Source of the DNA: Candidatus Krumholzibacteriia bacterium
GTDB lineage: Bacteria; Krumholzibacteriota; Krumholzibacteriia; LZORAL124-64-63
Direction of reading: 5' to 3'
Assembly: GCA_050174015.1 (NCBI GenBank)
Contig: JBFXKG010000005.1
Span: forward strand, 81,994 to 145,993
DNA length: 64,000 bases
Shown here: positions 15,722 to 50,776 of the stretch, in pieces
How the letters are laid out: each line of letters begins with the position of its first letter
Numbering within the stretch: the stretch's first letter is position 1
Program-made: the position numbers and the translations under genes
Notes under the pieces: model-generated
Database searches by the model: none
What the model saw: only the letters and a program-made list of their open reading frames with translations
Told to the model about the DNA's origin: nothing

Positions 15722-15798
15722 TGGTGGTCGTCTCCTTGTGGTGACTGGGTTTCGGCCGCCCGGGGGCGACGCGCTCGTTTGGGAGAAGAACGGGAGGG

Positions 15799-16221: not shown

Positions 16222-16426
16222 CCTGACTTCCTTCGGCTGCGGGTGAGGGCGAAATTCTCCGAAGCTCTAGGCCCAATTTAATAGGAATGATTATCGTTGT
16301 CAAATTTTATTCGTGACTTCTCTCCGGCATTTTGTGGATTTTATTCCGGCCTGCCTTAAACCCTCGGGCCCCGGGGATCGTCTGTCAAGACGAAGAACAC
16401 ATCCACCGGTGACGGGAGATCGGACG

Positions 16427-17041
16427 ATGATCCAGCAAATCCGCCGGGACGGGCGCCCGATGCCCGGTGCGGCCTCCGACCAGGAACTGGTCGAGGGCAG
16501 CACGGGCGGGGATCGCGCGGCCTACGAGGAGATCTACCGCCGCTACTGCGGGCGCATCCACGGACTGTGCCTGCGCCTGACGGGCGATCCGGTGGAGGCC
16601 GAGTCCCTGACGCAGGACGCCTTCGTGCGCGGCTGGTTCGCTCTGGGGGGATTCCGGGGGCAGGGAAGCCTGGCGGGCTGGCTGTCACGCCTGGCGGTGA
16701 ACCTCTGGCGGGATGGCTTGCGTTCCGGTAAGCGGATGAGGCGCCTGCAGGAAGGCCTGGCCCTCGAGGCCGGGGACGTGACGGGGGAGGGCTCCCTGGC
16801 AGCGGGCAGGAGCGGCGGCAACGTCGTGGCCCTGCTGACCGCGGTGGATCTCGAGCGCTGCCTGCCCAGGCTGCCCGAGGGGGCCCGGACGGTCTTCGTC
16901 CTTCATGACGTGGAAGGTTACACTCACCGGGAGATCGCCGGCCTGCTCGAGGTGGCCACGGGCACGGTGAAGGCCCAGTTGCACAGGGTGCGGCGGCTCT
17001 TGCGGGAAATGCTGGACGCGGACAGGGGAGTCGAATCATGA
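16427..17041 (+). CDS. ECF-type RNA polymerase sigma factor
   Basis: Sigma-70 region 2 (YEEIYRRYCGRIHGLCLRLTGD) and region 4 (VFVLHDVEGYTHREIAGLL...VKAQLHRVRRLL). Confidence 0.75.
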   Translation: MIQQIRRDGRPMPGAASDQELVEGSTGGDRAAYEEIYRRYCGRIHGLCLRLTGDPVEAESLTQDAFVRGWFALGGFRGQGSLAGWLSRLAVNLWRDGLRSGKRMRRLQEGLALEAGDVTGEGSLAAGRSGGNVVALLTAVDLERCLPRLPEGARTVFVLHDVEGYTHREIAGLLEVATGTVKAQLHRVRRLLREMLDADRGVES

Positions 17042-17475
17042 ACGAAACCGAACGCGATCCGTTGCTGCGGGCGGCGGGGGAACTGAGGCGGAGGGGGGCG
17101 GCCCCTTCCCGCGACCTGTGGCCGGACATCGTCGCGGCCATCGACCGCCTGGAAGTCGGGGGGCTCCGGCCCGCCGCTGCGTCACGGAGCGCCCGGCGCT
17201 GGCCGCATCTGGCCGCAGCCGCGGCGGTGACGGTCCTCTGCCTGATGGGTCCCCGCACCTATGGCCCCCCGGAGCATGGCGCCGGGGCGGCTCCCGCCGG
17301 GGGGCTTGCCGCCGTGGATCAGGCGCTGACCGAGGTCCTGACCGCCCTGGAACGGGACCCGGCGAATCCGAACCTGAACCATCTCGCCCGCCGACTCCAC
17401 CGGTCGAGGGCGGAGGTGTTGCTCCTGGAATCGGCGGCCCTCGGCAGGACCGCCCTGATGGATCTTGATCCCTGA
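17038..17475 (+). CDS. Putative anti-sigma factor
   Basis: ATGA overlap with the sigma-gene stop; 145 aa with a central hydrophobic segment; position typical of an anti-sigma partner. Confidence 0.45.
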   Translation: MNETERDPLLRAAGELRRRGAAPSRDLWPDIVAAIDRLEVGGLRPAAASRSARRWPHLAAAAAVTVLCLMGPRTYGPPEHGAGAAPAGGLAAVDQALTEVLTALERDPANPNLNHLARRLHRSRAEVLLLESAALGRTALMDLDP

Positions 17476-17514
17476 CGAAACCATCCGGCTCCGCCGGAAA
17501 CACCGAGGAGGACG

Positions 17515-18423
17515 ATGATGAGAAAGCATGGGATGGCCGCGGCCGGATGGGGCACGGGTCTGGCCGTGATCCTGATGATCATGACGGGCGCCGTCTTCGC
17601 CGAGGAACGGACGGTCCACAAGTCGGGGCCGGCGGATTCCGACGGCCGGGTACGGATCGAGAACATCGCCGGATCCATCGTGGTCGAAGGCTGGGACCGC
17701 GACGAGGTTCAGCTCGACGCCGTCCTGGGCGACGACGTCGAGGATCTCGAGTTCGAATCCGGGGCCGGCACCAAGATCGAGGTCATCTACCCCCGGCACG
17801 GCCGGAACATCGACGAGGGCGCGGACCTGACCATCAAGGTCCCCAGGGGAAGCAGGGTGGAGATCGACGGCGTCAGCTCCACCATCACCGTGGAGAAGGT
17901 GACCGGGGCCGTGTTCGCCGCATCGGTCAGCGGCACGGTGACCGTGTCCGGGACCCTGAAGGAGGTGTCCGCCGAGACCATCAGCGGCGACCTGGACCTG
18001 GACGTGGACTGTCCCGTGGTTTCCACCGAGTCCATCAGCGGGGAGATCCTGGTGCGGGGGCGCATCCTCAAGCTCGGCGCCTCCACGGTGTCGGGAGACC
18101 TCGACCTGGCGGCCGAGCGGTTCATCGAACTCGATCTGCAGTCGGTGACCGGGGACGTCGACGTCGCCGGGGATTTCGATCCCTCCGGTTCCTTCACCTT
18201 CGACCTGCACGGCGGGGATCTGACCCTGTCGGTGCCTGGCAGCCTGGATGCGGACCTGGAGATCGAGACCTTCACCGGGGACATCGAGGATGATTTCGGG
18301 GGCAAGGTGGAGCGGAGCAGCGAGTACGGGCCGGGCAAGGAGATGTCCCTGACGCTGGGCGCCGGCAAGGCGCGCGTCCGGATCAGCACCTTCAGCGGGG
18401 ACGTGAAGATCAACAAGCGCTGA
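17515..18423 (+). CDS. Putative beta-helical adhesin-like protein (DUF4097-like)
   Basis: Signal peptide; repeated GDL/GDV beta-strand motifs (TVSGTL, ISGDLDLDV, VSGDLDLAA, VTGDVDVAG, FSGDVKI); commonly encoded next to ECF sigma/anti-sigma pairs. Confidence 0.55.
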   Translation: MMRKHGMAAAGWGTGLAVILMIMTGAVFAEERTVHKSGPADSDGRVRIENIAGSIVVEGWDRDEVQLDAVLGDDVEDLEFESGAGTKIEVIYPRHGRNIDEGADLTIKVPRGSRVEIDGVSSTITVEKVTGAVFAASVSGTVTVSGTLKEVSAETISGDLDLDVDCPVVSTESISGEILVRGRILKLGASTVSGDLDLAAERFIELDLQSVTGDVDVAGDFDPSGSFTFDLHGGDLTLSVPGSLDADLEIETFTGDIEDDFGGKVERSSEYGPGKEMSLTLGAGKARVRISTFSGDVKINKR

Positions 18424-30266: not shown

Positions 30267-31124
30267 TCAGCCCCTCGCCAGCTCCCCCAGGATCTCCCCC
30301 CGCGCTCCCTCCCTCAGCTTCCGCATGGCCCGGTTGCGGATCTGGCGCACCCGCTCCCGTGACAGCCGCAACCTCTGCCCGATCGACTCCAGGGACTGCG
30401 AGGGTTCCTGGCCCAGCCCGAAGTAGCTCGCCAGGACTCCCCGTTCCCGCTGATCCAGTTCGGCCATGGCCGCAGCCAGGTGCTCTTCCAGACCCTGATT
30501 CTCCAGCGCGGTCAGGGGCACTGCGGCGCCGGGGTCGGCCAGGGTCTCCGCAAGGGTGGGGCTCTCGCCGTCGCCCTGCTCGTCCAGGGGGATGTTGGGC
30601 CGCCCGGCCGCCCGGATCCGGCCGATGATCAGGGGATCGAGGCCCATTTCACGGGCGAGATCGAGGTCCTGGGTCTCGCCCATGGCGGACTGGTTCATCC
30701 GCCTTTCGATGGCGGCGATCTTTACCGCGTCGCGCGCCCGGTTGGCGGGGAGCCGCACCGTGCGGGTCTTCTCCTGCAGGGCGGTGAGGATGGTCTGGCG
30801 GATCCACCAGGCCGCGTAGGTGATGAACCGCGAATCGCGCCGCTCGTCGAACCTGCGGGCGGCGGTGATCAGGCCGACGTTGCCCTCGGCGATCAGGTCC
30901 ATCGTGCTCAGGCCCCGTCCCAGGTACCGCTTCGCCACGCTGACCACGAACCGCAGGTTGGCGTTGACCATGGCGTCGAGGGCCTCGCCGTCGCCCCCGC
31001 GGATGCGCCGTGCCAGATCCTGCTCCTGCTCGCGGCTCAGCAGGGGATACCGCCCGATGATGCGGAGATAATGTTTCAGGGCCGGATCGTTCCGGCGCTC
31101 GAGATTGCTCTCGTATTCGTGCAT
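30267..31124 (-). CDS. RNA polymerase sigma factor, sigma-70 family (group 3-like, regions 2-3-4)
   Basis: 285 aa; region 2.x (DLIAEGNVGLITAARRFDERRDSRFITYAAWWIRQ) and region 4 (SLESIGQRLRLSRERVRQIRNRAMRKL). Confidence 0.75.
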   Translation of the reverse strand: MHEYESNLERRNDPALKHYLRIIGRYPLLSREQEQDLARRIRGGDGEALDAMVNANLRFVVSVAKRYLGRGLSTMDLIAEGNVGLITAARRFDERRDSRFITYAAWWIRQTILTALQEKTRTVRLPANRARDAVKIAAIERRMNQSAMGETQDLDLAREMGLDPLIIGRIRAAGRPNIPLDEQGDGESPTLAETLADPGAAVPLTALENQGLEEHLAAAMAELDQRERGVLASYFGLGQEPSQSLESIGQRLRLSRERVRQIRNRAMRKLREGARGEILGELARG

Positions 31125-31252: not shown

Positions 31253-32065
31253 TCAGCTCCTGTATTCCTGTCCCTTCAGGACCTGGGTCGCGCCCCCCTC
31301 GAGGAAGTGGTAGTCGGAGTACCCGTATTCCTCAAGGTAGTACTGGAGCCACTTGATCTGCTTGCCGACCTGGTCGAAGATCAGGAGCGTCTTGTCCTGG
31401 TTCTCCTTCCGGGCCACGAAGTTGGGGATGAAGACGTCCAGGGGGATTCCCCGGGCCCCGGTGATCCCCGGCAGGTCGCCGGATTTCTGGATGTGGTCGC
31501 GGACGTCGATCACCATCGCGTTCGGTTCGGCGGCCTTGGTCTGGAACGCGGCGAAATCCAGGCACTTGCCCTGGAAGTAGGACTTCTTCAGGAGCTGCTT
31601 GTCGGGGTCGGTGATGGCCTTGCCCAGCAACAGGGTACTCTGCGGCCAGACGGAGGCCCATTCGGGGATGCCGGCATCGAAGGCGTAGACGTTGTCGAAT
31701 CCCGCGGCCATGGCTTCCTGCGCCGCCTTGTAGGATTTCAGGCAGGTGGTGCCGTTGCAGTAGAACGCGACGTTGCGGCCCGGGTTGGCGGCGACCAGAT
31801 CGGCGATCTCGCCGGCGAAGGTCTTCTGCGAGACGGCGATGTGATGGGCGCCGTCGATGTGGATGACGTCGTACTCCAGCTTGGAGCGAACGTCGACGAC
31901 CACGAATTCGCCGCTTTCCAGGCCCAGGAACAGGTCGTAGGTTTCAATGGTCTTGACATCGGGATAATCCCCGCGGTAGGGATATTTCTCGTCGGCCGAC
32001 GCCGTCACGGCGAGGCCGGCGATCAGGGCGACGGCGAGCATGGCGTGGATCTTCGAGCGGATCAT
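31253..32065 (-). CDS. Periplasmic tandem rhodanese-domain sulfurtransferase
   Basis: Signal peptide; two rhodanese-like segments, first with active-site Cys loop FYCNGTTC. Confidence 0.7.
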   Translation of the reverse strand: MIRSKIHAMLAVALIAGLAVTASADEKYPYRGDYPDVKTIETYDLFLGLESGEFVVVDVRSKLEYDVIHIDGAHHIAVSQKTFAGEIADLVAANPGRNVAFYCNGTTCLKSYKAAQEAMAAGFDNVYAFDAGIPEWASVWPQSTLLLGKAITDPDKQLLKKSYFQGKCLDFAAFQTKAAEPNAMVIDVRDHIQKSGDLPGITGARGIPLDVFIPNFVARKENQDKTLLIFDQVGKQIKWLQYYLEEYGYSDYHFLEGGATQVLKGQEYRS

Positions 32066-32164
32066 GGGGCTCCTCCTCCGGATGGTGCCTGGGTTCGTTC
32101 CTGGTTTGTGGTATTCGGATGGAATCCCATCGACAGTGTGGGGATTTTCTTGAGGAGGAATCCC

Positions 32165-32668
32165 ATGGATGTGGTGCGCAGGGGGAAAACGGGCGGGACC
32201 ATGCTGCTCATGGCCCTGGTCCTGGTGGCGATCGGCGCCCTGGCCCTGGGGGCCGGGGAGAAGATGAGCGTCCAGGTCAAGACCGGCCAGCTCCGGGCCA
32301 AGGCCTCGTTCCTGGGGGCGCTGACGGGCGAGGTCGGGTACGGGACGCGGGTGGACGTGGTGGCCCGGCAGGGGGCCTGGGTCAAGGTGTCCGGGGCGGG
32401 CAAGGAGGGCTGGATCCACGAATCCGCCCTGACCCCCAAGGTCGTGGTCATGAAGGCGGGGGACGCGCCGGTCGGGACGGGCGCCGGCGGCGACGAGGTC
32501 GCCCTCGCCGGCAAGGGATTCAACTCCCAGGTCGAGGAGGAATACCGCAAGGAGAACAGGGAGGTCGACTTCGCCTGGGTCGACCGCATGGAGAAGTTCG
32601 TGATCACCCCCCGGCAGGCAGCCGACTTCCTCGCCGAAGGCTCCGTCGGAACCGAAGGGGGGAACTGA
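32165..32668 (+). CDS. Secreted SH3b-like domain protein
   Basis: Signal/TM MLLMALVLVAIGALALGA; SH3b-like segment GYGTRVDVVARQGAWVKVSGAGKEGWIHESAL; start 32165 or 32201. Confidence 0.45.
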   Translation: MDVVRRGKTGGTMLLMALVLVAIGALALGAGEKMSVQVKTGQLRAKASFLGALTGEVGYGTRVDVVARQGAWVKVSGAGKEGWIHESALTPKVVVMKAGDAPVGTGAGGDEVALAGKGFNSQVEEEYRKENREVDFAWVDRMEKFVITPRQAADFLAEGSVGTEGGN

Positions 32669-32669
32669 C

Positions 32670-33596
32670 ATGAAGACCTTCGGCACGACGATCCGGACCG
32701 TACTGGTGATCCTGGCCCTGGCCGCCCTGGCGGCCGGCTGCGCCTCGGTGGCCAAGATGGCCACCCAGGTGGGCCAGGGGACCGGGGCCATCACCGAGGA
32801 CCAGGCCCAGTCCCTGAACCGCAGCATCGACGCGGTGGAGAAGACCTTCACCGACATCACGCCCGAGCAGGAGTACTACCTGGGCCGCGCCGTGGCGGCC
32901 AACCTGCTGACCGACCAGCGGGCCCTGGACGATGCGGCGGCCAACGCCTACCTGAACCGCCTGGGCCAGACCCTGGCCATGGCCTCGGACCGCCCGGAGA
33001 CCTTCGGCGGATACCACTTCCTGCTGCTGGATTCGGACGAGATCAACGCCTTCGCCGCGCCCGGCGGCCTGATCCTGGTCACCCGGGGCATGGTGCGGCT
33101 TTGCGGGACCGAGGACGAACTGGCGGCGGTCCTCGCGCACGAGATCGGGCACATCCAGGGCAAGCACGGCCTGCGGGCCATCAAGAACAGCCGGCTGACC
33201 GGCGCCCTGACGGTCCTGGCGGCCGAGGGCGCGCGCCAGTTCGGCGGGCAGGACCTCAAGAATCTGGTCGAGGCCTACGAGGGCAGCATCAGCGACATCA
33301 CCGGGACCCTGGTGACAAGCGGTTACTCCCGCGGCCTGGAACAGGAAGCCGACCGGGCGGCGGTGGCCATCCTGGAGCGGGTGGGCTACGACCCGCACGC
33401 GCTGGTCACGATGCTGACCCGCATGAAGGAGCGGCTCGAGCCCGGCGGGCTGGATTTCGCCAAGACCCATCCCGACCCGGGCGACCGGATCGCCGACATC
33501 AAGCCCCTGATGACCAGGGCGCCGGCGGCGGCCGAACCGGCTGCGCGCCACCGGAGGTTCATCGGGGCGGTGGGCGGACTGCTCGCCGGGTCATGA
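32670..33596 (+). CDS. M48-family Zn metallopeptidase lipoprotein (BepA/YcaL-like)
   Basis: Lipobox LAAGCAS; HEIGHIQGKHG zinc motif and downstream E (LEQEADRAAV). Confidence 0.8.
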   Translation: MKTFGTTIRTVLVILALAALAAGCASVAKMATQVGQGTGAITEDQAQSLNRSIDAVEKTFTDITPEQEYYLGRAVAANLLTDQRALDDAAANAYLNRLGQTLAMASDRPETFGGYHFLLLDSDEINAFAAPGGLILVTRGMVRLCGTEDELAAVLAHEIGHIQGKHGLRAIKNSRLTGALTVLAAEGARQFGGQDLKNLVEAYEGSISDITGTLVTSGYSRGLEQEADRAAVAILERVGYDPHALVTMLTRMKERLEPGGLDFAKTHPDPGDRIADIKPLMTRAPAAAEPAARHRRFIGAVGGLLAGS

Positions 33597-36543: not shown

Positions 36544-38144
36544 ACCAGTATGCACCGTTGATCATCGAGCTGGGAATCATGGCGGCCGTGTGGCTGCTCG
36601 GGGCGGGGTTCGCCTCGGTGTTCCACCGGAAGTCGCGGACCGAACACGGGAGCCGGGGCCGCCCCCGCAACCTGGGGACGCTGCTGGCCTACCTGGCCCT
36701 GCCGGTCTTCGTGCTGGTCCTGTCCTTCGGGGCCGAACGGGCCGCCGGGCTGTTCCCGCAGGCTGCGGCCTGGCTCGACGGCCACGGCAACCACGTCTCG
36801 GCCTGGCTTCTGTTCTGGCTGGGAGTGGGGCTGATCCTGCTGGTCGAGGGAATCCTCCATCTGGTCTACGCCTCCCGCGGGCGGAACTTCCCGGTCCCGG
36901 ACCTGCTGCTGGACATCCTGAGGCTGCTGCTGATCCTGGCGGTGGCTTTCGGTGTCCTGAGGTTCGAACTCGGACTGAACATCGGGCCCCTCCTGGCGTC
37001 CACCGCCCTGATCACGGCCGTGGTCGGCTTCGCCTTGCAGGGCGTGCTGGGGAACCTGCTGGCGGGCATGTCCCTGCACATCTCGCGGTCCATGGTGCCG
37101 GGAGACTGGATCGATCTGGGCGGGACCACGGGCAAGGTCGTCGAGACCAACTGGCGCGAGACCCGGGTGCGGACCAACGACGGCCACATGATCATCGTGC
37201 CCAACAGCAAGGTGGCCGACGCGGTCATCCACAACATGGTGCGGCCCAATTCCACCCGCCGCCATCAGGTCAACGTCGGTGCCAGCTACGCCGATGCTCC
37301 CGACGCCGTGATCGCCGCCCTGGTCGAGGCGGCGCTCGAGGTGCCCGAGGTCCTGCGCAACCCCGCCCCGGACGCCTTCGTCACCGCCTACCAGGATTAC
37401 GGCATCAACTACGTGCTGCGGTTCTGGTCGAAGGAGTACCACCGCCGGCTGGTCATCGAGGGTCACGTCAACCGGATGATCTGGTACAAGTTCAAGCGGC
37501 GGGGCATCGAGATCCCCTTCCCCATGTCCGACAAGCTGCTGTACGACTTCATGGAGGTGGTTCAGACCCAGGGACGCAAGCCCGCGCCTGCCGCCGAGCT
37601 GAGCCGCATCACCGAACTGCTGGCCGGCAGCGACCTCGTCCGCACCCTGGCGACCGATCTCCAGGGCGCGCCGCTGCTGACGCGGGAGCATCTGGCGGAA
37701 CTCGCCCCTCACGTGCGCCGCGTCCTGTACACCCGGGGGGAGACCCTGTGCCGCCAGGGGGATCAGGGCGATTCCTGTTTCCTGGTGGTGAGCGGGCAGC
37801 TTTCCGGGCGGGTCCGCAACGAACAGGGACAGGAGATCGCCGCCTTCGATCTGGGGCCGGGGGCCCTGGTGGGCGAGATGAGCCTGATGCTGGGGGTTCC
37901 CCGTTCGGCGGAGATCACCCTGCCCGAGGGGGCCGAGTTGATCGAGATCGGCCCGGAGGCGTTCAAGGTGCTCCTGGGCCTGCATCCGGAGGTCCCCGAA
38001 TCCCTGGCGAGACTGGCCGAGGACCGGGCCAAGGCCAACCGGGCGGCCCTGGAGGCCTGGGCCGGCGCCCGGAACGGAAACGAGGGGATCGAGTTGAACG
38101 CCAAGGGATTCCTGCATCGGTTCCTGAAGATCCTGGGCCGCTGA
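36540..38144 (+). CDS. MscS-family mechanosensitive channel with C-terminal cyclic-nucleotide-binding (cNMP) domain
   Basis: ATGA overlap with the upstream stop; MscS TM3/beta-domain (GVLGNLLAGMSLHISRSMVPGDWIDLGGTTGKVVETNWRETRVRTNDGHMIIVPNS); C-terminal cNMP fold (GETLCRQGDQGDSCFLVVSGQLSG...GEMSLMLGVPRSAEITL). Confidence 0.8.
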   Translation: MNQYAPLIIELGIMAAVWLLGAGFASVFHRKSRTEHGSRGRPRNLGTLLAYLALPVFVLVLSFGAERAAGLFPQAAAWLDGHGNHVSAWLLFWLGVGLILLVEGILHLVYASRGRNFPVPDLLLDILRLLLILAVAFGVLRFELGLNIGPLLASTALITAVVGFALQGVLGNLLAGMSLHISRSMVPGDWIDLGGTTGKVVETNWRETRVRTNDGHMIIVPNSKVADAVIHNMVRPNSTRRHQVNVGASYADAPDAVIAALVEAALEVPEVLRNPAPDAFVTAYQDYGINYVLRFWSKEYHRRLVIEGHVNRMIWYKFKRRGIEIPFPMSDKLLYDFMEVVQTQGRKPAPAAELSRITELLAGSDLVRTLATDLQGAPLLTREHLAELAPHVRRVLYTRGETLCRQGDQGDSCFLVVSGQLSGRVRNEQGQEIAAFDLGPGALVGEMSLMLGVPRSAEITLPEGAELIEIGPEAFKVLLGLHPEVPESLARLAEDRAKANRAALEAWAGARNGNEGIELNAKGFLHRFLKILGR

Positions 38145-38170
38145 AACGGGTTTTCAATAAATTTTCCACA

Positions 38171-38209
38171 ACGGCATGGACAATTCCGGAACCAATACTA
38201 TAGTATTTT
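38171..38209 (+). promoter_or_regulatory. Sigma-70-like promoter (TGGACA-N18-TAGTAT) overlapping a near-perfect palindrome ccaatactatagtatt(tt)gg in an AT-rich island
   Basis: Hexamers read directly; the palindrome spans the spacer and -10; about 100 nt upstream of the Cys-rich repeat-protein gene. Confidence 0.45.
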
Positions 38210-38311
38210 GGTATGACTTGAATCCGTAGCCACCGACACGGAGAACCAACGGGACCGTTCCCTTGATTTCATCGCCCGGCGCTCTCGTTGCCGGGCTGAA
38301 AGGAAGCTGCA

Positions 38312-38905
38312 ATGAAGCGCACCACGACCACCCTGATCGCCATGCTGGCCATCCTCGCCCTGTCCGCCACCCTGGCCATGGCGGGGGACGACTGCGGAGC
38401 CAAGAAGGCCGCCGCCAAGGGCGCCTGCGCGGACAAGGCCGCCGCCTGCGCCGACAAGGCCGGCGCGACCGCTCTGGAAGCCTCAGCCAAGGGCGCCTGC
38501 GCGGACAAGGCCGCCGCCTGTGCGGACAAGGCCGGAGCGACCGCCATGGAAGCCTCCGCCAAGGGCGCCTGCGCGGACAAGGCTGCCGCCTGCGCCACCA
38601 AGGCCGGCTCGTGCCCTGATCAGGCCGCCTGCGACGCCGTCAAGGCCGCCATGCACAAGTGTTGCGCCGAGGCCATGGCCGCGGGCAACGGCTGCTGCGG
38701 CAAGGACGCCGCCGGCCTGAAGGCCGACTTCACTCAGAAGGTCGCCTCCCACAAGGCCGCCATGGCCGTGAAGGCCGACATGCACAAGTGCTGCGCCGAG
38801 GCCCTCGACGCGGGCAAGGGCTGCTGCGGCAAGGACGCCGCCGGTCTGAAGGCCGACTTCGACAAGAAGGTCGCCGGGGTCGAGAAGAAGGTCGCCTCGA
38901 TGTAA
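38312..38905 (+). CDS. Secreted Ala/Cys-rich tandem-repeat protein (candidate metal-binding periplasmic protein)
   Basis: Signal peptide; 3 x 24-aa repeat AKGACADKAAACADKAGATA(L/M)EAS (72-nt DNA period from 38415); 2 x about 43-aa repeat MHKCCAEA..G.GCCGKDAAGLKADF; 14 Cys in 197 aa. Confidence 0.6.
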   Translation: MKRTTTTLIAMLAILALSATLAMAGDDCGAKKAAAKGACADKAAACADKAGATALEASAKGACADKAAACADKAGATAMEASAKGACADKAAACATKAGSCPDQAACDAVKAAMHKCCAEAMAAGNGCCGKDAAGLKADFTQKVASHKAAMAVKADMHKCCAEALDAGKGCCGKDAAGLKADFDKKVAGVEKKVASM

Positions 38906-39080
38906 TCCCCCGGTGCCAGCCTGACCACACACCGGGACGGACCCCGGCTCCCTGCGAGCCGGGGTCTTTTCCATGTCACCGGGTATCCATGCCTGCGTAT
39001 TATCCCCTGTCGCCACCGGGCCGGGCATCCGTGCCGGTCCGGAGCGGGCAAGCGATCGGCGCCGATTTTCTTGCGAGGAC

Positions 39081-39713
39081 GTGTCATTGAACCTGAGAAC
39101 CGCGTGGCGTGACCGCAGGCACGGGATCCTGCTCCGGCTGGCCCGGCGCGGTCACGAGGACTCCTTCACCAGGCTTTACCAGGAGCTGTACGCCCCGGTG
39201 ACGGCTTTCGTCGCAAGCCGGGTCAGGAATCGCGAGGACGCCGAGGACGTCGTGTCCCAGGTCTTCCAGCGCTTCCTGGCGGGCATGGACGGGTTCGATG
39301 GCCGGCGCGGGAGCGTGCTCGGCTGGACCCTGGCCATGGCCCGACACGCAGTCATCGACCGCGCCCGGCGCCAGGCCGCCCACGGGGGCGCCCGGCGGTG
39401 GGTGGGGGACGTGGACGGCATGGCGGAGGTGCTGCCGTCCCCGGTCCCGGATGCCCTTGCGGCCCTGGTGGCGGACGAGGATCTGGCCAGGCTGGCCCGG
39501 CTGCTGGACATGCAGCCGGCGGAGATCCGGGAGATGTTCGAGCTGCGCTTCGGCCAGGGCCTGGCCCTGAAGGACGTGGCCGGGGTGCTGGACCTGAGCG
39601 AGGACGCCGTCAAGCAGCGTTTCGCCCGGGCCACGCGGAAGCTGCGGGAACAATGGCGAGGCGACGTGAATCCGGCGGGCAAGGGAGGCAAGACATGCAC
39701 GGCGACGGACTAG
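39081..39713 (+). CDS. ECF-type sigma factor
   Basis: Region 2 (FTRLYQELYAPVTAFVASRV...DVVSQVFQRF) and region 4 (LDMQPAEIREMFELRFGQGLALKDVAGVLDLSEDAVKQRFARATRKL); GTG/TTG start around 39081-39088. Confidence 0.65.
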   Translation: MSLNLRTAWRDRRHGILLRLARRGHEDSFTRLYQELYAPVTAFVASRVRNREDAEDVVSQVFQRFLAGMDGFDGRRGSVLGWTLAMARHAVIDRARRQAAHGGARRWVGDVDGMAEVLPSPVPDALAALVADEDLARLARLLDMQPAEIREMFELRFGQGLALKDVAGVLDLSEDAVKQRFARATRKLREQWRGDVNPAGKGGKTCTATD

Positions 39714-40423
39714 AACGCAGGCTCGAACAGCTGCACAGACGCGCCACGGAGGAGGCCGGAGGAAGCGGACCGTCCGCGGACCACCGCCGATCCCTGCAGG
39801 CCGACCTCGTGACCCGCTATCGCCAGAAGTATCCCCGCCATCGGAGGTGGCTCATGCTGCTCAGTCCCTACACGCGCACCGGTCGTTTCGCCATGGCCCT
39901 GCTGGCCATGGCCGTCCTCAGCGTCGGCGCCTGCTCGACGTCCACCACCACCCAGGTCGAGATGGGCCGGAAGGTCAGCATCGGACTGACCGACAAGGCC
40001 GCATCGATTCCCGACATCGACGCCCGGCTCGGCGAGTTCTTCGCCACGGTCCCGGGCATCGAGAACCTCAACATCAACATCCAGAAGTTCACCGACGGCC
40101 AGGTGGTCTTCGACCTGATGGTGTGGGGCCAGGATCTGGACGGCGAGCAGCTGATCGCCGACCTGCGCCGGGAGATCCCCGAGTTGTCCGACGCCGCCAT
40201 CACCACCGAGGCCCTGACCGGCACCATCGAGGAATCCCTGGTGGACAAGTGGAAGCGCGAGATCTTCCAGATGGAAGTGGACGGGGCGACCGAGGAGGAG
40301 ATCCGCGCCCAGATCCTTGCCCAGCTCGCGGAGCAGGGAGCGGACGACGCCCAGGTCGAGGTCCGCATGGAGGACGGCAAGACGGAGATCAAGGTGATGG
40401 TGACGGAGGACGTGGAGGATTAG
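39695..40423 (+). CDS. Putative anti-sigma factor / membrane protein
   Basis: RBS aagggagg before ATG 39695; overlaps the sigma-gene 3' end; single TM (FAMALLAMAVLSVGA) then an acidic extracytoplasmic domain. Confidence 0.45.
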   Translation: MHGDGLERRLEQLHRRATEEAGGSGPSADHRRSLQADLVTRYRQKYPRHRRWLMLLSPYTRTGRFAMALLAMAVLSVGACSTSTTTQVEMGRKVSIGLTDKAASIPDIDARLGEFFATVPGIENLNINIQKFTDGQVVFDLMVWGQDLDGEQLIADLRREIPELSDAAITTEALTGTIEESLVDKWKREIFQMEVDGATEEEIRAQILAQLAEQGADDAQVEVRMEDGKTEIKVMVTEDVED

Positions 40424-41296: not shown

Positions 41297-41386
41297 CCCG
41301 ATGCCTCGAGGACACGAAGGTTGCGGAACTTAAGGCCATCCTGGATGATATGACCAGTGCACAATGACCACCGAAGGGATCACCAC

Positions 41387-42787
41387 ATGCAACTGACCTT
41401 CCACGGCGCCGCCGGCACCGTCACCGGCTCGCGGCACCTGCTCGAGGCCGCCGGCCAGCGCGTCCTCATCGATTGCGGCCTGTTCCAGGGGCTCAAGCAG
41501 CTGCGGCGGATGAACTGGGATACCCCGGGTTTCGAACCCGGGTTCCTCGATCGCGTCGTCCTGACCCACGCCCACATCGACCACACGGGTTACACCCCCC
41601 GCTTGCTGCAGTACGGGTTCAAAGGGCCGGTCCACTGCACCGAGCCTACCGCCGAACTGCTGGAACTGATGCTCATGGATTCGGCGCACCTGCAGGAGGA
41701 GGACGCGGCCTGGGCGAACAAGAAGGGGTTCTCCAAGCACGATCCCGCCGAACCGCTCTACACGTCGGTGGACGCCCTCAGGACGCTCAAGCTGATCCGG
41801 CCCGAACCGTTCCAGCGCTGGATCGCGTGTTCGGAGGGGATGCGCATGCGCTACCACAATTCCGGACACATCCTCGGCGCGGGTTTCGTGGAGTTCCGCA
41901 TCAAGGCCGACCGGCCCGACACGGTGAATCCGGGCGAGCTGACGGTGATCTTCAGCGGGGACGTCGGCCGCTACGACGTGCCCCTCCACCTCGACCCCGA
42001 GCCCCTGCCCGCCTGCGACGTCCTGATCATCGAATCGACCTACGGCAACCGCACCCACGACCACGAGCCCGTGCTGGAGCAGATCGGCGAGGAGTTCAGG
42101 CGCACGGTGCACAAGCGGGGGGTCATCCTCATCCCGGCGTTCGCGGTCGGACGCACCCAACTGGTGGGCCTGATCCTCCGCGGCCTGATGACCCAGGGCG
42201 ACCTGGCCGAGGTCCCCATCCACATCGACAGTCCCATGGCCATCGACGCGACCCTGATCTACTCGCGCCACCTCTACGACGACAACCTGGACGAGGGCGT
42301 CACGGCCGACGACCGCAGCCGCCTGTTCCCCCGCAACGTGAAGCTGCATCGCACCGTCCACGAGTCCAAGCAGCTCAACACCCTGAAGGGGCCACGGGTG
42401 ATCATCGCGGCCAGCGGGATGATGACCGGGGGGCGCATCCTCCACCATCTCATCCGGCGCCTGCCCGACCATCACAACCTGATCCTGCTGTCGGGCTACC
42501 AGGCGCAGGGTACGCGGGGCCGGTCGCTGCAGGACGGCGCCGACCATCTGCGCATGCACGGCCAGAACGTGCCGGTCCACGCCAAGGTGGCGACCATCGA
42601 TGGACTCAGCAGCCACGCCGACATGAACGAGCTGATGCGCTGGGTCTCCACGGCTCCGCAGCCGCCGAAGCGGGTGTTCGTCGTCCATGGGGAAGAGGAG
42701 CAGTCGAGCCACCTGGCGGGGCTCATTCGTACGGCGACGGGGGCGGAGGTGACCGTTCCGGGTCTGAAGGATTCCTTCGCCTTGTGA
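41387..42787 (+). CDS. MBL-fold beta-CASP ribonuclease (RNase J/CPSF-like)
   Basis: LTHAHIDHTG motif II, beta-CASP region, C-terminal RNA-metabolising MBL motifs (HADMNELMRW, HGEEE). Confidence 0.7.
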   Translation: MQLTFHGAAGTVTGSRHLLEAAGQRVLIDCGLFQGLKQLRRMNWDTPGFEPGFLDRVVLTHAHIDHTGYTPRLLQYGFKGPVHCTEPTAELLELMLMDSAHLQEEDAAWANKKGFSKHDPAEPLYTSVDALRTLKLIRPEPFQRWIACSEGMRMRYHNSGHILGAGFVEFRIKADRPDTVNPGELTVIFSGDVGRYDVPLHLDPEPLPACDVLIIESTYGNRTHDHEPVLEQIGEEFRRTVHKRGVILIPAFAVGRTQLVGLILRGLMTQGDLAEVPIHIDSPMAIDATLIYSRHLYDDNLDEGVTADDRSRLFPRNVKLHRTVHESKQLNTLKGPRVIIAASGMMTGGRILHHLIRRLPDHHNLILLSGYQAQGTRGRSLQDGADHLRMHGQNVPVHAKVATIDGLSSHADMNELMRWVSTAPQPPKRVFVVHGEEEQSSHLAGLIRTATGAEVTVPGLKDSFAL

Positions 42788-46313: not shown

Positions 46314-46976
46314 ATGATCAGTTTGGTCAAGAAAATGTCCCTGGCGTTGGTCCTGGCAGCGGTGCTGTCCGTGCCGGCCTTCGCCCAGGTCGCTTCCATC
46401 GATTATATCGGATTCGGGTACGAGACCGGAGGCATCTTCCCCAGCGATCCGGGGGATGAACTGGTGGTCGCCGCCATCGCCGACTGGGTCGACGCTGAGT
46501 TCGGCGTCGATCTCGGCGCGGATGAGCTGACCTTCCACGTCTACGGCCTGATCAGCACCGGCCAGTTCAGCTCCGGCGGCAACACCGTGGTCGGCTACAC
46601 GGGCGGCGTCCTGGAGATCTACCAGGATTCCGGCAAGAACGCCGACTGGGGCGTCAATCCCCCCAACGCCACCTCTCCCGGCACCTTCTCCGACGGAACC
46701 CTCTTCTTCCAGGGCTCGTTCAACGACTTCACGCTCTTCTTCACGCCCGACGGCAACGGGGCCTTCGAGGGCTCCCTCGACGCCCTGGGCGGAACGATGA
46801 TCGACGGCAGCTGCGCCGGGTGCGTGTACACCTGGGGCGGGGCGTTCACCCGTGATGCCGGGGCGCTGATTCCAGGGGGTTACGACCTCCAGATCGACGG
46901 CGTGTTCCAGATCGACGCCACCGTTTCCAGCGAGACCAGCAACTGGGGATCCGTCAAGGCCCTGTTCAACAACTAG
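46314..46976 (+). CDS. Secreted paralogue A1 (type-A, CxxC-containing; C-terminal SWGSVKALFNN)
   Basis: Signal peptide; conserved SIDYIGFGYETGG, ELTFHVYGLIS, LEIYQD, DGSCAGCVYTWGGAF; about 65% identity to A2 and A3. Confidence 0.75.
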   Translation: MISLVKKMSLALVLAAVLSVPAFAQVASIDYIGFGYETGGIFPSDPGDELVVAAIADWVDAEFGVDLGADELTFHVYGLISTGQFSSGGNTVVGYTGGVLEIYQDSGKNADWGVNPPNATSPGTFSDGTLFFQGSFNDFTLFFTPDGNGAFEGSLDALGGTMIDGSCAGCVYTWGGAFTRDAGALIPGGYDLQIDGVFQIDATVSSETSNWGSVKALFNN

Positions 46977-47026
46977 GAAGATCAGCCCGGGCCGTGACAG
47001 GCCTGGGATTCCGGGAGGAATACAGC

Positions 47027-47647
47027 ATGAAGAAGAGGATCATGGTTCTGCTGGTCGCCGCCGCCTCGGTCCTGGTTCCCATGACCGCCCAGGCCCAGCA
47101 GCTTTTCGATTTCAACGGCCAGACCGACCTGCCGGACATGGTGGGATCCGACCTGACGATGTACAGCCGGATGTTCGACGCCTCTCCGGCGGTTCCGCCC
47201 ATCCCCCTTGACTTCGCCAACTACGAGTTCACCCTGGTGGTGACCGGGCTCGAACTGGTGACCGACGGGAATCCCCAGGCTTACGCCGGGGGCACCGTGA
47301 TCATCTACCAGGATGACGCCACGCCGGCGGATTACGCCAACACCGGGACCTTCACCGACGGCACCGCCATCCTGGTGGGCAGCCTGGTCAGCCTGAACCG
47401 GACCATGTTCACCTCGTCCCTGGGCTCCGTCCTGGGCACCGTGGACTGGACCGGGGGGACCCGCCTGGACGACATCGCCCCCGAGGATCAGGACGGCTGG
47501 GCCTTCCTGTCGGGTACGATCAACCGGGCCGATTCCGTCGAACCCGGCTTCGATGAGGCCTGGGACGGGAAGGTCGAACCGCAGGAGCCCATCGTGGACG
47601 ATCAGAACAGCAGCTGGGGATCCGTGAAGGCTCTTTTCAGTCGCTAG
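47027..47647 (+). CDS. Secreted paralogue B1 (type-B, Cys-free; C-terminal SWGSVKALFSR)
   Basis: Signal peptide MKKRIMVLLVAAASVLVPMTAQA; conserved QQLFDFNGQ, PIPLDFANYEFTLVV, GGTVIIYQDD, VDWTGGTRLDDIAPEDQDGWAFLSG. Confidence 0.75.
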   Translation: MKKRIMVLLVAAASVLVPMTAQAQQLFDFNGQTDLPDMVGSDLTMYSRMFDASPAVPPIPLDFANYEFTLVVTGLELVTDGNPQAYAGGTVIIYQDDATPADYANTGTFTDGTAILVGSLVSLNRTMFTSSLGSVLGTVDWTGGTRLDDIAPEDQDGWAFLSGTINRADSVEPGFDEAWDGKVEPQEPIVDDQNSSWGSVKALFSR

Positions 47648-47671
47648 CCGCCATGCGAGGCTTGAGGCGCA

Positions 47672-47703
47672 GGGGCCCCGACCAGGTTCGGGGCCCTTTT
47701 TTG
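47672..47703 (+). terminator. Rho-independent terminator after B1 (ggggccccg-accaggtt-cggggccc + T7)
   Basis: GC stem followed by a T-run. Confidence 0.7.
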
Positions 47704-47737
47704 ATAGGTGGCGTCATTTTCCCGCCCTGGTCATTTA

Positions 47738-47752
47738 GGAAAAATTCCTAAT
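47738..47752 (+). promoter_or_regulatory. Conserved motif GGAAAAATTCCTAAT, copy 2; followed by candidate promoter TTGAAA-N17-TAGGAT (47753-47781)
   Basis: Read directly. Confidence 0.5.
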
Positions 47753-47889
47753 ATTGTTGAAATCGTTCGGGAAATGGCGTAGGATTTTTCACAGACGATT
47801 CAAAATTGATGACATAGGGTGCCGGAGATGATGGGAATCACAACGGACGATCCCGGCCGTGATGCGGCCCGGATCCTGGGGGTACGACG

Positions 47890-48558
47890 ATGAAGAGAAC
47901 CTATGTTCCGAAGGTGCTGGTGGGCGCCTTGCTTCCGGCCCTGTTCGCGGTCCCAGCCCTGGGACAGGTCTATTCGATCGATTACTTGGGCTATGCCTGG
48001 GAAACCGGCGGGATCCTGCCCAGCGATGCGGGCGACGAACTGGTCATCGTCAGCGTCGCGGACAACGTCGATCCCGCCTTCGGGGTCGATCTGGGCACCG
48101 ATGAGCTGACCTTCCACGTCTACGGCCTGATCAGCGGCGGCGAGACGGATTTCCTCGGCAACACCATGATCAACTATTCCGGCGGCTACCTGGAGATCTA
48201 CCAGGATCCTTCGCGGAACGCCGATTGGGGCGTCGATCCCCCCAATGCGACCGCGCCCGGCTCCTTCACCGAGGGCAGCCTGTTCTTCCGTGGCGCCTTC
48301 ACGGCGTTCACCCTGTTCTTCGATCCCAGCGGCAGTTACGGTTCCTTCGAGGGGACTCTCGACGGCCTCGCGGGATCGATCATCGACGATGTCTGCTCCG
48401 ACTGCGTGTACACGTGGGGCGGGGCGTTCACCCTGGATGCCGGCGCCCAGATTCCGCAGGGCTATGACCTCCAGATCGACGGCGTCTTCGAGATCGACGC
48501 GGCCGTGTCCTCGGAATCCGCGAGCTGGGGTTCGGTGAAGGCGCTCTTCAACAATTGA
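47890..48558 (+). CDS. Secreted paralogue A2 (C-terminal SWGSVKALFNN)
   Basis: Signal peptide; SIDYLGYAWETGG ... DDVCSDCVYTWGGAF. Confidence 0.75.
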   Translation: MKRTYVPKVLVGALLPALFAVPALGQVYSIDYLGYAWETGGILPSDAGDELVIVSVADNVDPAFGVDLGTDELTFHVYGLISGGETDFLGNTMINYSGGYLEIYQDPSRNADWGVDPPNATAPGSFTEGSLFFRGAFTAFTLFFDPSGSYGSFEGTLDGLAGSIIDDVCSDCVYTWGGAFTLDAGAQIPQGYDLQIDGVFEIDAAVSSESASWGSVKALFNN

Positions 48559-48605
48559 GGTTTGCATCGCTCCGCGGGGGGCTTGTGACATCTGGAGGTT
48601 GCAAC

Positions 48606-49226
48606 ATGAGATTCACGGTAAAGATCCTGCTGGCCGTCCTGGCGCTGGCTTCGCTTCCGGTGGCCGTGCAGGCCCAGCAGCTGTTCGACTTCAACGGTCA
48701 GGCGGTCCTGCCCGCCGGAACGGGCGGGACCCTGACCATGCACAGCATCGTTTACGACGCGGCTCCCGCCGTGACGCCGATTCCCCTGGATTTCGCGAAC
48801 TTCGAGTTCACGATCGTCGTGGAGAACCTGATCCTGGATGTGGACGGGAATCCGCAGACGTACTCCGGAGGCACGGTCACCCTGTACCAGGACGCTGCGA
48901 CGGCCGCGGACTTCGGGGACCTCTCGACCTTCACGGACGGGACGGCGATCCTGATCGGGACCATCACCACCCTGAACCGGACGCTGTTCACGGCGACCCT
49001 GGGGTCGGTGCTGGGTTCGGTGGACTGGACCGGCGGGACCCGCCTGGACGACATCGCACCCTGGGATCAGGGTGGCTGGGCGTTCCTGAGCGGCCTGACC
49101 AATCGGGTGGATTCGGTGGTGCCGGGATTCGACGAGGCCTGGGACGGGAAGATCGAACCGTCCGAGCCCATCGTCGCCGGCGAGGCGAGTTCCTGGGGTT
49201 CGGTCAAGGCCCTGTTCAATCGTTGA
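48606..49226 (+). CDS. Secreted paralogue B2 (C-terminal SWGSVKALFNR)
   Basis: Signal peptide MRFTVKILLAVLALASLPVAVQA; QQLFDFNGQ ... VDWTGGTRLDDIAPWDQGGWAFLSG. Confidence 0.75.
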   Translation: MRFTVKILLAVLALASLPVAVQAQQLFDFNGQAVLPAGTGGTLTMHSIVYDAAPAVTPIPLDFANFEFTIVVENLILDVDGNPQTYSGGTVTLYQDAATAADFGDLSTFTDGTAILIGTITTLNRTLFTATLGSVLGSVDWTGGTRLDDIAPWDQGGWAFLSGLTNRVDSVVPGFDEAWDGKIEPSEPIVAGEASSWGSVKALFNR

Positions 49227-49243
49227 CCGCCTCCCGTTCATCT

Positions 49244-49276
49244 GCGAGCCCCGGCCTGCGGGGCTCGCAGTTTTTT
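49244..49276 (+). terminator. Rho-independent terminator after B2 (gcgagccccg-gcct-gcggggctcgc + agtttttt)
   Basis: Perfect 10-bp GC stem plus T6. Confidence 0.75.
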
Positions 49277-49333
49277 GACCACATGTGCTCGAATTTGGTA
49301 TATCGTTGCCATCATTGAAGTTGGTGAAAGATA

Positions 49334-49348
49334 AGAAAAATTCCTAAT
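49334..49348 (+). promoter_or_regulatory. Conserved motif AGAAAAATTCCTAAT, copy 3; followed by candidate promoter TTGCAT-N17-TAGTCT (49351-49379)
   Basis: Read directly. Confidence 0.5.
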
Positions 49349-49459
49349 TCCATTGCATTTTCTGGCCGGCCGTGCTAGTCTCACCCTGAAATCGCCCACC
49401 AATTAAAACTCAATTCGATATATGCGACCCGCAACTCGAGTTCAGCTGGAGGGAAGATC

Positions 49460-50122
49460 ATGAAGAAAACCTTCACCCCTTGCGCCCTGGTGAGCCTGCT
49501 GCTCGCTTTCGTTCTGGCGGTGCCGGCGCTGGGGCAGGTGTATTCCGTCGATTATCTCGGTTATGGCTGGGAGCAGGGCGGCCCCCTGAAGGCCGCCGGT
49601 GATGAACTGATCATCACGGCCACGTCGACCTACGTGCATCCTGCCTTCGGCGTCGATCTCGGAACCGAGGAATTGACCTTCTACGTCTCGAGCTTGATCA
49701 GCAACGGCCCGACGGACTACTTCGGCAACACCCAGATCAACTACACCGGCGGCATTCTCGAGATCTATCAGGATCCCCTGATGAACGCGGACTGGGGAGT
49801 CAATCCTCCCAACGCCACCTCACCGGGCAGCTTCCAGGAAGGCAGCCTGTTCTTCGCGGGGGCGTTCACCGCCTTCACCATGTTCTTCGATCCTTCCGGG
49901 TCCTACGGTTCGTTCGAGGGGACCCTCGACGGGGTGGCCGGCTCCATCATCGACGGGGTCTGCTCCGATTGCGTCTACACCTGGGGTGGCGCCTTCCAGA
50001 CCGGTTCCGGGGCCCAGATTCCCGAGGGGTACTGGATCCAGGTCGATGGCGTGTTCGAGATCGATGCCGCCGTATCTTCGGAGGCCGCCAGCTGGGGCTC
50101 CGTCAAAGCACTTTTCAACTAG
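49460..50122 (+). CDS. Secreted paralogue A3 (C-terminal SWGSVKALFN)
   Basis: Signal peptide; SVDYLGYGWEQGG ... DGVCSDCVYTWGGAF. Confidence 0.75.
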   Translation: MKKTFTPCALVSLLLAFVLAVPALGQVYSVDYLGYGWEQGGPLKAAGDELIITATSTYVHPAFGVDLGTEELTFYVSSLISNGPTDYFGNTQINYTGGILEIYQDPLMNADWGVNPPNATSPGSFQEGSLFFAGAFTAFTMFFDPSGSYGSFEGTLDGVAGSIIDGVCSDCVYTWGGAFQTGSGAQIPEGYWIQVDGVFEIDAAVSSEAASWGSVKALFN

Positions 50123-50167
50123 TCCGGTAGGATTCGCCGCGACGCCCTGCGGCATGGGAGGACGGAA

Positions 50168-50776
50168 ATGAAGAACGCAATCAAGGGAATGCTGATCGTC
50201 CTGGCGGTGGTTGCCTTGCCCCTGTCCGCCTCGGCGCAACAGTTGTTCGACTTCAACGGCCAGGCCATGGTGCCTGCGGTGGTCGGCGGCACGCTGAGCA
50301 TGTACAGCGTGATGTACGATCCCGCCCCGCAGACCACGCCCCTCCCGCTGGACTTCGACAACTTCGAATACACGCTGGTGGTTTCGGGAGCGACCCTCGA
50401 CGTCAACGGCAATCCCCAGTCCTACGTCGGCGGCGTGCTGACGATCTACGAGGACGCGGGTACGGCGGCCGACTTCGCCAACACCGCGACGTTCACCGAC
50501 GGCACGGCCATCCTGGTGGGGAGCTTCACCTCCCTCAACCGGATCGTCTTCCTGAGCACGGGTTCGGTCCAGGGCTACCTGGACTGGAACGGAGGCGCCT
50601 GGCTGAACGACATCGCGCCCGAGGATCAGACCGGCTGGGCCTTCCTTGCCGGCACCAACAGCCGCAGCCCCGAACCCGGATATTCGGAGACCTGGGACGG
50701 CAAGGTGGAGCCGCCGACGGTCATCGTCGACGACCACGTCTCCTCCTTCGGCTCGGTCAAGGCGCTGTTCAAGTAG
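50168..50776 (+). CDS. Secreted paralogue B3 (C-terminal SFGSVKALFK)
   Basis: Signal peptide; QQLFDFNGQ ... LDWNGGAWLNDIAPEDQTGWAFLAG. Confidence 0.75.
   Translation: MKNAIKGMLIVLAVVALPLSASAQQLFDFNGQAMVPAVVGGTLSMYSVMYDPAPQTTPLPLDFDNFEYTLVVSGATLDVNGNPQSYVGGVLTIYEDAGTAADFANTATFTDGTAILVGSFTSLNRIVFLSTGSVQGYLDWNGGAWLNDIAPEDQTGWAFLAGTNSRSPEPGYSETWDGKVEPPTVIVDDHVSSFGSVKALFK

Follow-up and report, generated by a model that had tools for sequence, protein, structure and literature searches.

A 64,000-nucleotide stretch of a Candidatus Krumholzibacteriia genome (contig JBFXKG010000005.1, positions 81,994 to 145,993; hereafter the window) carries, at 38312 to 38905, a genuine gene for an exported Ala/Cys-rich repeat protein. 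As judged by sequence searches, the protein belongs to a small, undescribed family that is nearly confined to the Candidatus Krumholzibacteriota, and the conserved core of this family is a module with two vicinal cysteine pairs. We propose tentatively, at somewhat short of an even chance, that the protein is a thiolate-based binder or buffer of soft metals in the periplasm.

A first-pass annotation of this DNA had proposed a secreted protein encoded at this position, and we confirmed the 197-aa open reading frame (ORF). The N terminus of the protein, MKRTTTTLIAMLAILALSATLAMA followed by GDD, has the n-region, h-region and A-x-A arrangement of a Sec signal. The same layout, with M-K-[KR], a hydrophobic core and then A-x-A, appears in all 91 of the full-length relatives we examined. 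The signal peptide was called from this layout and from comparison with relatives, without a SignalP-type predictor. It contains KR and lacks the motif of twin-arginine translocation (Tat). A lipoprotein was ruled out: there is no lipobox, and in most relatives the first Cys lies 3 to 5 residues past A-x-A. The mature protein is 173 aa long, not 175 as first counted, and the Cys count is 17 rather than 14. Its composition is indeed narrow, with Ala, Lys, Gly, Cys and Asp making up 77% of the mature protein. Cys accounts for about 10% of the protein, with spacings of 7 and 17 residues in an N-terminal linker and of 1-10-1 in each C-terminal module.

We then looked for named relatives. A search of Pfam-A and NCBIfam with hmmscan (E ≤ 1) gave only a sub-threshold match to DUF1889, at 12 bits. 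Neither the single protein nor a 27-sequence profile matched any sequence in the Protein Data Bank (PDB), and a Foldseek comparison of the AlphaFold2 model with the PDB returned only designed Protein-A repeat proteins, with a best E value of 0.69. The first-pass annotation had not recognized the family, and this still holds across Pfam, NCBIfam, PDB sequences and Foldseek. Among 5.8 billion sequences we found 38 relatives, none usefully named; their labels include two "MAG: hypothetical protein" entries (MAG, metagenome-assembled genome) and a PilW annotation that is evidently spurious. When 1.84 billion clusters were searched exhaustively with a profile, 54 representatives emerged, and 185,579 species genomes, one genome per species, yielded 51 loci. 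By label, 22 of the 51 are Krumholzibacteriota or Krumholzibacteriia, 12 are Fibrobacteraceae or Fibrobacter MAGs, 16 are unclassified, and 1 is from an Actinomycetota bin, where the gene sits on a single 2.3-kb contig. Many of the loci without a Krumholzibacteriota label share synteny and the promoter motif described below with the labeled ones. One locus, L008, is 93% identical to the window in DNA over 10.5 kb, and its protein is 88% identical in the best segment; the window protein is 40 to 67% identical to aligned family members. The exact window protein is absent from the assembly collection searched, and a literature search on Krumholzibacteria and cysteine-rich proteins found no paper.

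What the relatives have in common, apart from the signal peptide, is a 43-aa CC-x9-CCG module, and we define the family by a signal peptide and at least one such module. The module occurs in 1 to 3 copies per protein, usually 3. The window protein has two, at residues 112-154 and 155-197, with no third CC-x9-CCG copy anywhere in the window; these correspond to the two longer repeats with vicinal cysteines of the first-pass annotation, and both motifs were confirmed within a 129-nt tandem repeat. The module consensus is A-D-M-[H/G]-K-C-C-[AVI]-x-[AS]-x-x-A-G-K-G-C-C-G-K-D-A-x-x-[LV]-K-A-x-[YF]-x-K-K-V. Across 101 module copies in 39 proteins conservation is position specific, and the CC...CCG residues are invariant. 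The first CC is preceded by Met in 88 of 96 modules, and the residue after this Met position is His in 53 or Gly in 36 of the 96. In a wider set of 132 distinct sequences, 229 of 235 modules carry all four cysteines (CCCC), and the remaining 6 are CCCH, where His takes the place of the fourth Cys; these six come from three or more distinct sequence contexts. Among the 235, the module cysteines show no further kind of substitution. An exchange between Cys and His is typical for residues that bind metal and would be unexpected for disulfide partners. Since Cys to His is the sole substitution of a module Cys, metal ligation is favored.

AlphaFold2 models this part of the window protein with confidence: residues 103-197 have a predicted local distance difference test (pLDDT) score of 89 to 98 and form a helix, a CCG turn and a long helix, twice. 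In each module, a short helix is predicted to start at the first CC, a tight Gly-rich turn to carry the CCG, and a long amphipathic helix to follow. A homologue with three modules, P0024, is modeled with the same pattern three times.

The region ahead of the modules behaves differently. Tandem Repeats Finder called a 72-nt repeat in it, with an internal 21-nt subperiod. The first-pass annotation had described three 24-aa repeats with a 72-nt period; the period stands, but at 2.7 copies the third repeat is partial. The array encodes a low-complexity linker with Cys at i and i+7 (C-x6-C), and residues 25-100 are poorly predicted by AlphaFold2 (pLDDT 40 to 58). Among relatives, the distance from the signal peptide to the first module ranges from 0 to 126 aa. 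Their linkers are likewise of low complexity (32% Ala, 12% Lys, 8.7% Cys), and the units that recur are nearly always [DE]KAAC-like, HCGxCG, or His-rich ends such as GHDHGKK. Whatever their sequence, these variable N-terminal linkers are Cys rich or His rich. Repeat number also varies between close relatives, as the protein of L008 lacks one 7-aa unit and has one Cys fewer than the window protein. By comparison with relatives, the 24-aa Ala/Cys repeats are part of a fast-changing linker and not a family feature as such, and the linker is one that has expanded independently in many lineages.

We favor metal binding because the module cysteines are invariant save for Cys to His and because the first CC has Met and His immediately ahead of it. 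The linkers, enriched in Cys or His, point the same way, as does a Cys content of about 10% in a helical exported protein, as in Csp1. The reading also draws on the fact that periplasmic copper sponges and stores are an established class, with PcoE/SilE and Csp1 as examples (PMC7558416). On this evidence the first-pass suggestion of a secreted Cys-rich protein, probably binding a metal or metalloid, is strengthened. In the mechanism we propose, a Sec-exported, mostly alpha-helical periplasmic protein would ligate soft metal ions through the four thiolates of each module, with the Met and His ahead of them assisting. Cu(I) would be the most likely metal, although Zn, Cd, Hg or As(III) might be bound instead. 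Further thiols would come from the variable Ala/Lys/Cys linker, and the protein, present in large amounts, would buffer metal in the periplasm or soak it up as a sponge. Its gene would be driven by a near-consensus sigma-70-type promoter, where two further elements, GGAAC and the GTAGGA box, may indicate an extra layer of control. A more ambitious version makes the module a new extracytoplasmic metal-thiolate site, a "periplasmic metallothionein" with mononuclear or polynuclear Cu(I), Zn or Cd clusters, high expression throughout the phylum, a dual housekeeping and extracytoplasmic function (ECF)-type promoter, a structured leader and a [DE]KAAC linker that tunes capacity. This version we regard as doubtful.

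How does the protein compare with known metal stores? Csp1 of Methylosinus trichosporium, which forms Cys-lined four-helix bundles, is likewise exported and all alpha, with about 10% Cys placed along its helices; it also has Met and His near its thiolate sites, and it is proposed to buffer or store Cu(I) outside the cytoplasm (PMC7558416). However, there is no sequence or profile similarity between the two, with no Pfam match at E ≤ 1 and no PDB match, and Csp1 is exported by Tat rather than Sec. In Csp1, CxxxC and CxxC motifs line the core of the bundle, whereas here vicinal pairs are located at a helix N terminus and in a turn. The protein described here is modular, with repeats and a disordered linker, and its predicted helix, CCG turn and long helix do not make a four-helix bundle. 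PcoE and SilE are similar in being small, partly disordered periplasmic proteins, presumably abundant in the present case too, with repeated ligand motifs and a proposed role in first-line sequestration (PMC7558416). Unlike them, the window gene is Cys based, chromosomal and monocistronic, without metal-resistance neighbors, and there is no homology. The ligands of PcoE and SilE are Met and His, and their genes are found in plasmid-borne pco and sil operons under copper-responsive two-component control. Two further likenesses are analogies only. Desulforedoxin, ArsD and MerA use vicinal CC as soft-metal ligands, and the twin Cx9C (CHCH) proteins and Cox17 have Cys pairs about 9 to 10 residues apart across a helix-turn-helix. 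CHCH proteins differ, however, in having two Cys per helix, joined as disulfides in the mitochondrial intermembrane space; in the present module the x9 spacer spans a Gly-rich turn, and there is no Pfam CHCH match. The same Pfam-A and NCBIfam search (E ≤ 1) placed the protein in none of the PcoE/SilE, metallothionein (SmtA), CHCH, CpxP/Spy/ZraP or CnrX profiles. This is, then, a new family and a new four-Cys module for a probably familiar job.

Several observations weigh against a metal store. The family is known from MAGs only. We scanned about 35 ORFs between 15.1 and 59.5 kb of the window and found no metal-efflux gene among them, and across the loci no metal-efflux, chaperone or metal-sensor gene recurs beside the Cys-rich gene. 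High expression, which the mechanism calls for, is inferred from sequence signals alone. In addition, disulfide formation or redox buffering would be another possible role for the two vicinal Cys pairs.

The last point leads to an alternative that we consider unlikely: a disulfide-stapled or thiol-redox helical protein with a structural or chaperone-like role in envelope stress, in the manner of Spy, CpxP or ZraP, and not a metal store. Disulfides within a module would lock the helix-turn-helix hairpin, or the cysteines would undergo redox cycling and so buffer thiols sacrificially. In their predicted all-alpha form, the hairpin repeats do resemble those of small periplasmic stress proteins, Sec export delivers the protein to a compartment that permits disulfides, and the lack of a metal gene in the neighborhood fits as well. 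An ECF sigma/anti-sigma pair, a type of system that often handles envelope stress, is near the gene in 13 loci. However, the 6 Cys-to-His replacements among 235 modules would leave a disulfide partner unpaired, and Met and His flank the first CC. Several relatives have His-rich N termini, and there is no LTXXQ, CpxP or Spy match in Pfam. Vicinal Cys-Cys disulfides are strained and rare, which also counts against this view.

The signals around the gene are conserved as well. The first-pass annotation had placed an AT-rich island ahead of it, and its base composition agrees (Table 1). Inside the island, the motif GGAAC-N6-TATAnT-N6-GTA[G/T]GA is exact in 27 of the 51 loci, and several more keep GGAAC-N6-TAT. 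There is one full motif per locus; the window has only one even when 2 mismatches are allowed, with a chance expectation of 0. At the position of TGGACA, relatives carry TGGCT, TTGAC, TTGCA or TAGCA, 16 nt upstream of TATAnT. In many cases GGAAC forms the right arm of an imperfect dyad (GTTyy-GGAAC), the window copy of which is TTCCGGAA (38184-38191). The GTAGGA box probably marks where the transcript begins (its 5′ end) or else is a −10 of ECF-like type. In the second case GGAAC-N18-GTA would be the promoter, a pattern that resembles ECF-type promoters of the SigR/SigH/SigE consensus, in which a −35 GGAAC or AAC element and a −10 (C)GT element are about 16 to 18 nt apart. An overlapping ECF-type promoter or a regulator site at GGAAC/GTAGGA is therefore plausible. 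GGAAC-N18-GTA[G/T]GA, exact in the 27 loci, overlaps the equally conserved sigma-70-type −35/−10 pair, and one or both may be functional. Sigma-54, RpoH-type and SigB-type readings were dropped by eye, as their spacings do not fit.

Between the GTAGGA box and the start codon is a leader with two GC hairpins, which differ in sequence between clades and keep their positions. The hairpin region just before the Shine-Dalgarno sequence is more stable than dinucleotide shuffles in all 27 loci (mean z −1.5), while folds of the whole leader are not individually significant (z −0.2 to −2.0). RNAalifold found no consensus pairs in 25 leaders aligned with MAFFT, because hairpins this dissimilar in sequence and length do not align. 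Rfam gave only chance-level matches (E ≤ 10) in 38100-39100. The leader could be stabilizing or regulatory. Downstream, a hairpin with a T run equivalent to the window terminator follows the gene in every relative inspected. Since it has its own strong terminator, the gene is monocistronic. Together, the promoter, structured leader, Shine-Dalgarno sequence and terminator suggest high expression.

Directly downstream, the first-pass annotation had placed an ECF sigma/anti-sigma pair. The sigma factor is supported by a family match, but the anti-sigma call depends on position and topology: the 242-aa membrane protein has no family match supporting it. We considered that the Cys-rich protein may be the periplasmic sensor or partner of this pair, binding a metal or an oxidant and modulating the anti-sigma factor, as CnrX does for CnrY/CnrH. 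The gene order, Cys-rich gene, ECF sigma and membrane protein, with the sigma gene 160 to 230 bp downstream, as seen in 11 loci and in the window, would suit such a role, and so would the GGAAC-N18-GTA pattern. It shares with CnrX, and with Spy, CpxP and ZraP, its small size, helical fold and periplasmic location, and in some of the loci its gene adjoins those of an ECF sigma factor and a membrane protein. We nevertheless judge the idea improbable. The pair is near the gene in only 13 loci (about a quarter), a figure that includes the window, and is directly adjacent in 11 of these; most loci have no ECF pair nearby and still keep the gene and its promoter motif. The strong terminator separates the two genes, and there is no homology to CnrX. 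The ECF gene also has a different upstream motif. GGAAC..GTAGGA is not found ahead of the adjacent ECF gene; TGTCAC-N15/16-GCGTAT is there instead, and it occurs downstream of the Cys-rich gene as TGTCAC-N15/16-GCGTAT(A/T)C in L001, L004, L006, L009, L015, L018, L027, L028, L033 and L038. This motif is a candidate autoregulated ECF promoter, distinct from GGAAC..GTAGGA.

Other neighbors recur from locus to locus. The most constant one downstream is a beta-CASP metallo-beta-lactamase nuclease, in 19 loci. Upstream, a Trans_reg_C/PD40 protein is found in 19 loci and an MscS-cNMP channel in 8, and an FG-GAP/HATPase protein is nearby in 17. In at least 17 loci a 284-aa group-2 (RpoS/RpoD-like) sigma gene is divergent from the Cys-rich gene, often 250 to 520 bp away. 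A block of CHASE2-cyclase, metallo-beta-lactamase, MscS-cNMP and Cys-rich genes recurs in Krumholzibacteriia MAGs at about 53% protein identity. In L012, L025 and L055 the beta-CASP gene directly follows the Cys-rich gene and the ECF pair is absent; in L007, L024 and L043 there is no ECF gene within 4 kb. Judging by gene order, the neighborhood seems to be a block of ancestral synteny into which individual lineages have inserted genes, and not a functional operon.

One neighbor bears on another possibility, to which we give a small chance. In habitats that are sulfidic and anoxic, the protein might carry sulfane sulfur or polysulfide in the periplasm, or else a thiophilic metalloid (arsenite or thioarsenate, for example). 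Chains of persulfide or polysulfide, or As(III), would then be bound to its many thiols. The protein is very Cys rich with vicinal pairs, and in ArsD it is vicinal Cys pairs that bind As(III). A secreted rhodanese-domain protein adjoins the divergent sigma gene in about 8 loci, the window among them, and Krumholzibacteriota are reported from anoxic and sulfur-cycling settings. However, in L001 and L004, where the rhodanese gene is directly adjacent, the only rhodanese domain of its product carries Asp at the position of the catalytic Cys. Most loci lack the rhodanese altogether, and no ars or sulfur-metabolism genes recur.

The remaining alternative comes from the first-pass annotation, which had read TGGACA-N18-TAGTAT and a palindrome as a MerR-type promoter, where an activator would bind a dyad in an over-long spacer and the gene would be induced by metal. 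Both sequences exist. The palindrome AATACTATAGTATT is perfect, overlaps the spacer and −10 as described, and is unique in the window, with 0 copies expected by chance; in this one genome, an AT-rich promoter with such a dyad does look like a MerR-type promoter. However, the pair conserved in evolution is TGGACA-N16-TATAGT, with a −10 that sits 2 nt to the left of TAGTAT, and it scores better in a hexamer scan (10/12 versus 9/12). The conserved spacer, found in 27 loci, is thus 16 bp and not 19 to 20. The palindrome is missing from 25 of the 27 orthologous promoters, which have inverted repeats of 2 to 6 bp per arm in varying places. MerR-family regulators are usually encoded close by and divergently, but a search for regulators found no MerR, ArsR or CsoR gene among the scanned ORFs, the only metal-type regulator there being a Fur-family gene 22 kb from the Cys-rich gene. 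With a 16-bp spacer, a dyad that is not conserved and no such regulator among the scanned ORFs, the MerR model fails its defining tests; it is largely refuted by the comparative data, and we consider it very improbable.

Table 1. Features of the Cys-rich gene region, in window coordinates
Feature	Position	Strand	Basis
284-aa group-2 sigma factor	30267-31124	−	
AT-rich promoter island, 37% GC versus 66.5% for the window	38145-38225	+	Base composition
−35-like hexamer TGGACA	38177-38182	+	Consensus scan and relatives
GGAAC box in spacer, 6 nt upstream of −10	38188-38192	+	Exact in the 27 full-motif loci
Perfect 14-bp palindrome AATACTATAGTATT, centered on −10	38194-38207	+	Window and L008 only
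−10 hexamer TATAGT, 16 nt after TGGACA	38199-38204	+	TATAnT in all 27 full-motif loci
GTATGA ("GTAGGA box"), 6 nt after −10	38211-38216	+	GTA[G/T]GA in 27 loci
Leader of about 100 nt, GTAGGA box to start codon	38211-38311	+	Conserved layout in relatives (L001-L053)
Leader element CCACCGACA..GG	38230-38241	+	Conserved CCACCGnCA element
Leader GC hairpin GGGACCGTTCCC	38251-38262	+	
Leader hairpin GCCCGGCG..TGCCGGGC	38274-38296	+	
Shine-Dalgarno sequence GAAAGGA	38298-38304	+	Invariant
Coding sequence, exported Ala/Lys/Cys-rich repeat protein, 197 aa, 17 Cys	38312-38905	+	ORF translation
Sec-type signal peptide, 24 aa, predicted cleavage between AMA and GDD	38312-38383	+	Sequence features common to all relatives
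72-nt tandem repeat, 2.7 copies, 90% matches, KGACADKAAACADKAGATA.EASA units	38414-38608	+	Tandem Repeats Finder
129-nt repeat, 1.9 copies, 90% matches, encoding two 43-aa MHKCC-x9-CCG modules	38636-38875	+	Tandem Repeats Finder
Intrinsic terminator, 11- to 12-bp GC stem, −25.7 kcal/mol, then TTTT	38940-38970	+	Folding and relatives
TGTCAC-N15/16-GCGTAT motif, candidate ECF-gene promoter	38974-39002	+	Conserved in relatives
ECF sigma factor; start probably GTG 39081 or TTG 39087; homologues 207 aa	39081-39713	+	Family match
242-aa single-pass membrane protein, overlapping the end of the sigma gene	39695-40423	+	Putative anti-sigma by position and topology

Other genes of the window were recorded along the way. 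The beta-CASP nuclease gene is at 41357-42787, and its best NCBIfam matches are well below their cutoffs: type VII CRISPR Cas14 at 318 bits versus 800, and archaeal aCPSF1 at 268 versus 580. The secreted rhodanese-domain protein is encoded at 31253-32860 (− strand); in some clades its gene is between the divergent sigma gene and the Cys-rich gene. The Fur-family regulator (15802-16221, − strand; Pfam FUR, E value 1e-25) has CxxC pairs and is directly upstream of an AhpC/1-Cys peroxiredoxin gene (15104-15970, − strand), the two forming a PerR-ahpC-like oxidative-stress pair. A second ECF sigma gene (16313-17041) has no GGAAC motif upstream; after it come an ORF of 145 aa and a gene for a DUF4097 "toastrack" protein (the three spanning 16313-18423). 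Farther downstream, a run of six tandem genes (46314-50776) forms three A-B pairs; the products are secreted proteins, about 202 to 223 aa long, with no Pfam match. Identity is 60 to 75% among the A copies and 59 to 66% among the B copies, versus about 30% between A and B. Five of the six end in SWGSVKALF and one in SFGSVKALF, which might be a sorting or beta-barrel signal.

Exported Cys-rich metal stores are rare in bacteria. The main example is Csp1, which has another fold, another Cys pattern and another export route. If the cysteines of the new family are structural disulfides, the finding shrinks to a lineage-specific hypothetical protein. If metal binding is true, a new compact four-Cys repeat module would join the known metal-binding motifs; small and genetically encodable, the module may also be useful as a thiolate site. 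The conserved promoter and leader would be among the first defined expression signals for Krumholzibacteriota, an uncultured phylum whose setting is anoxic and often sulfidic or metal-rich sediments. For this phylum, metal binding would also offer a first lead to the function of an envelope protein that is presumably abundant.

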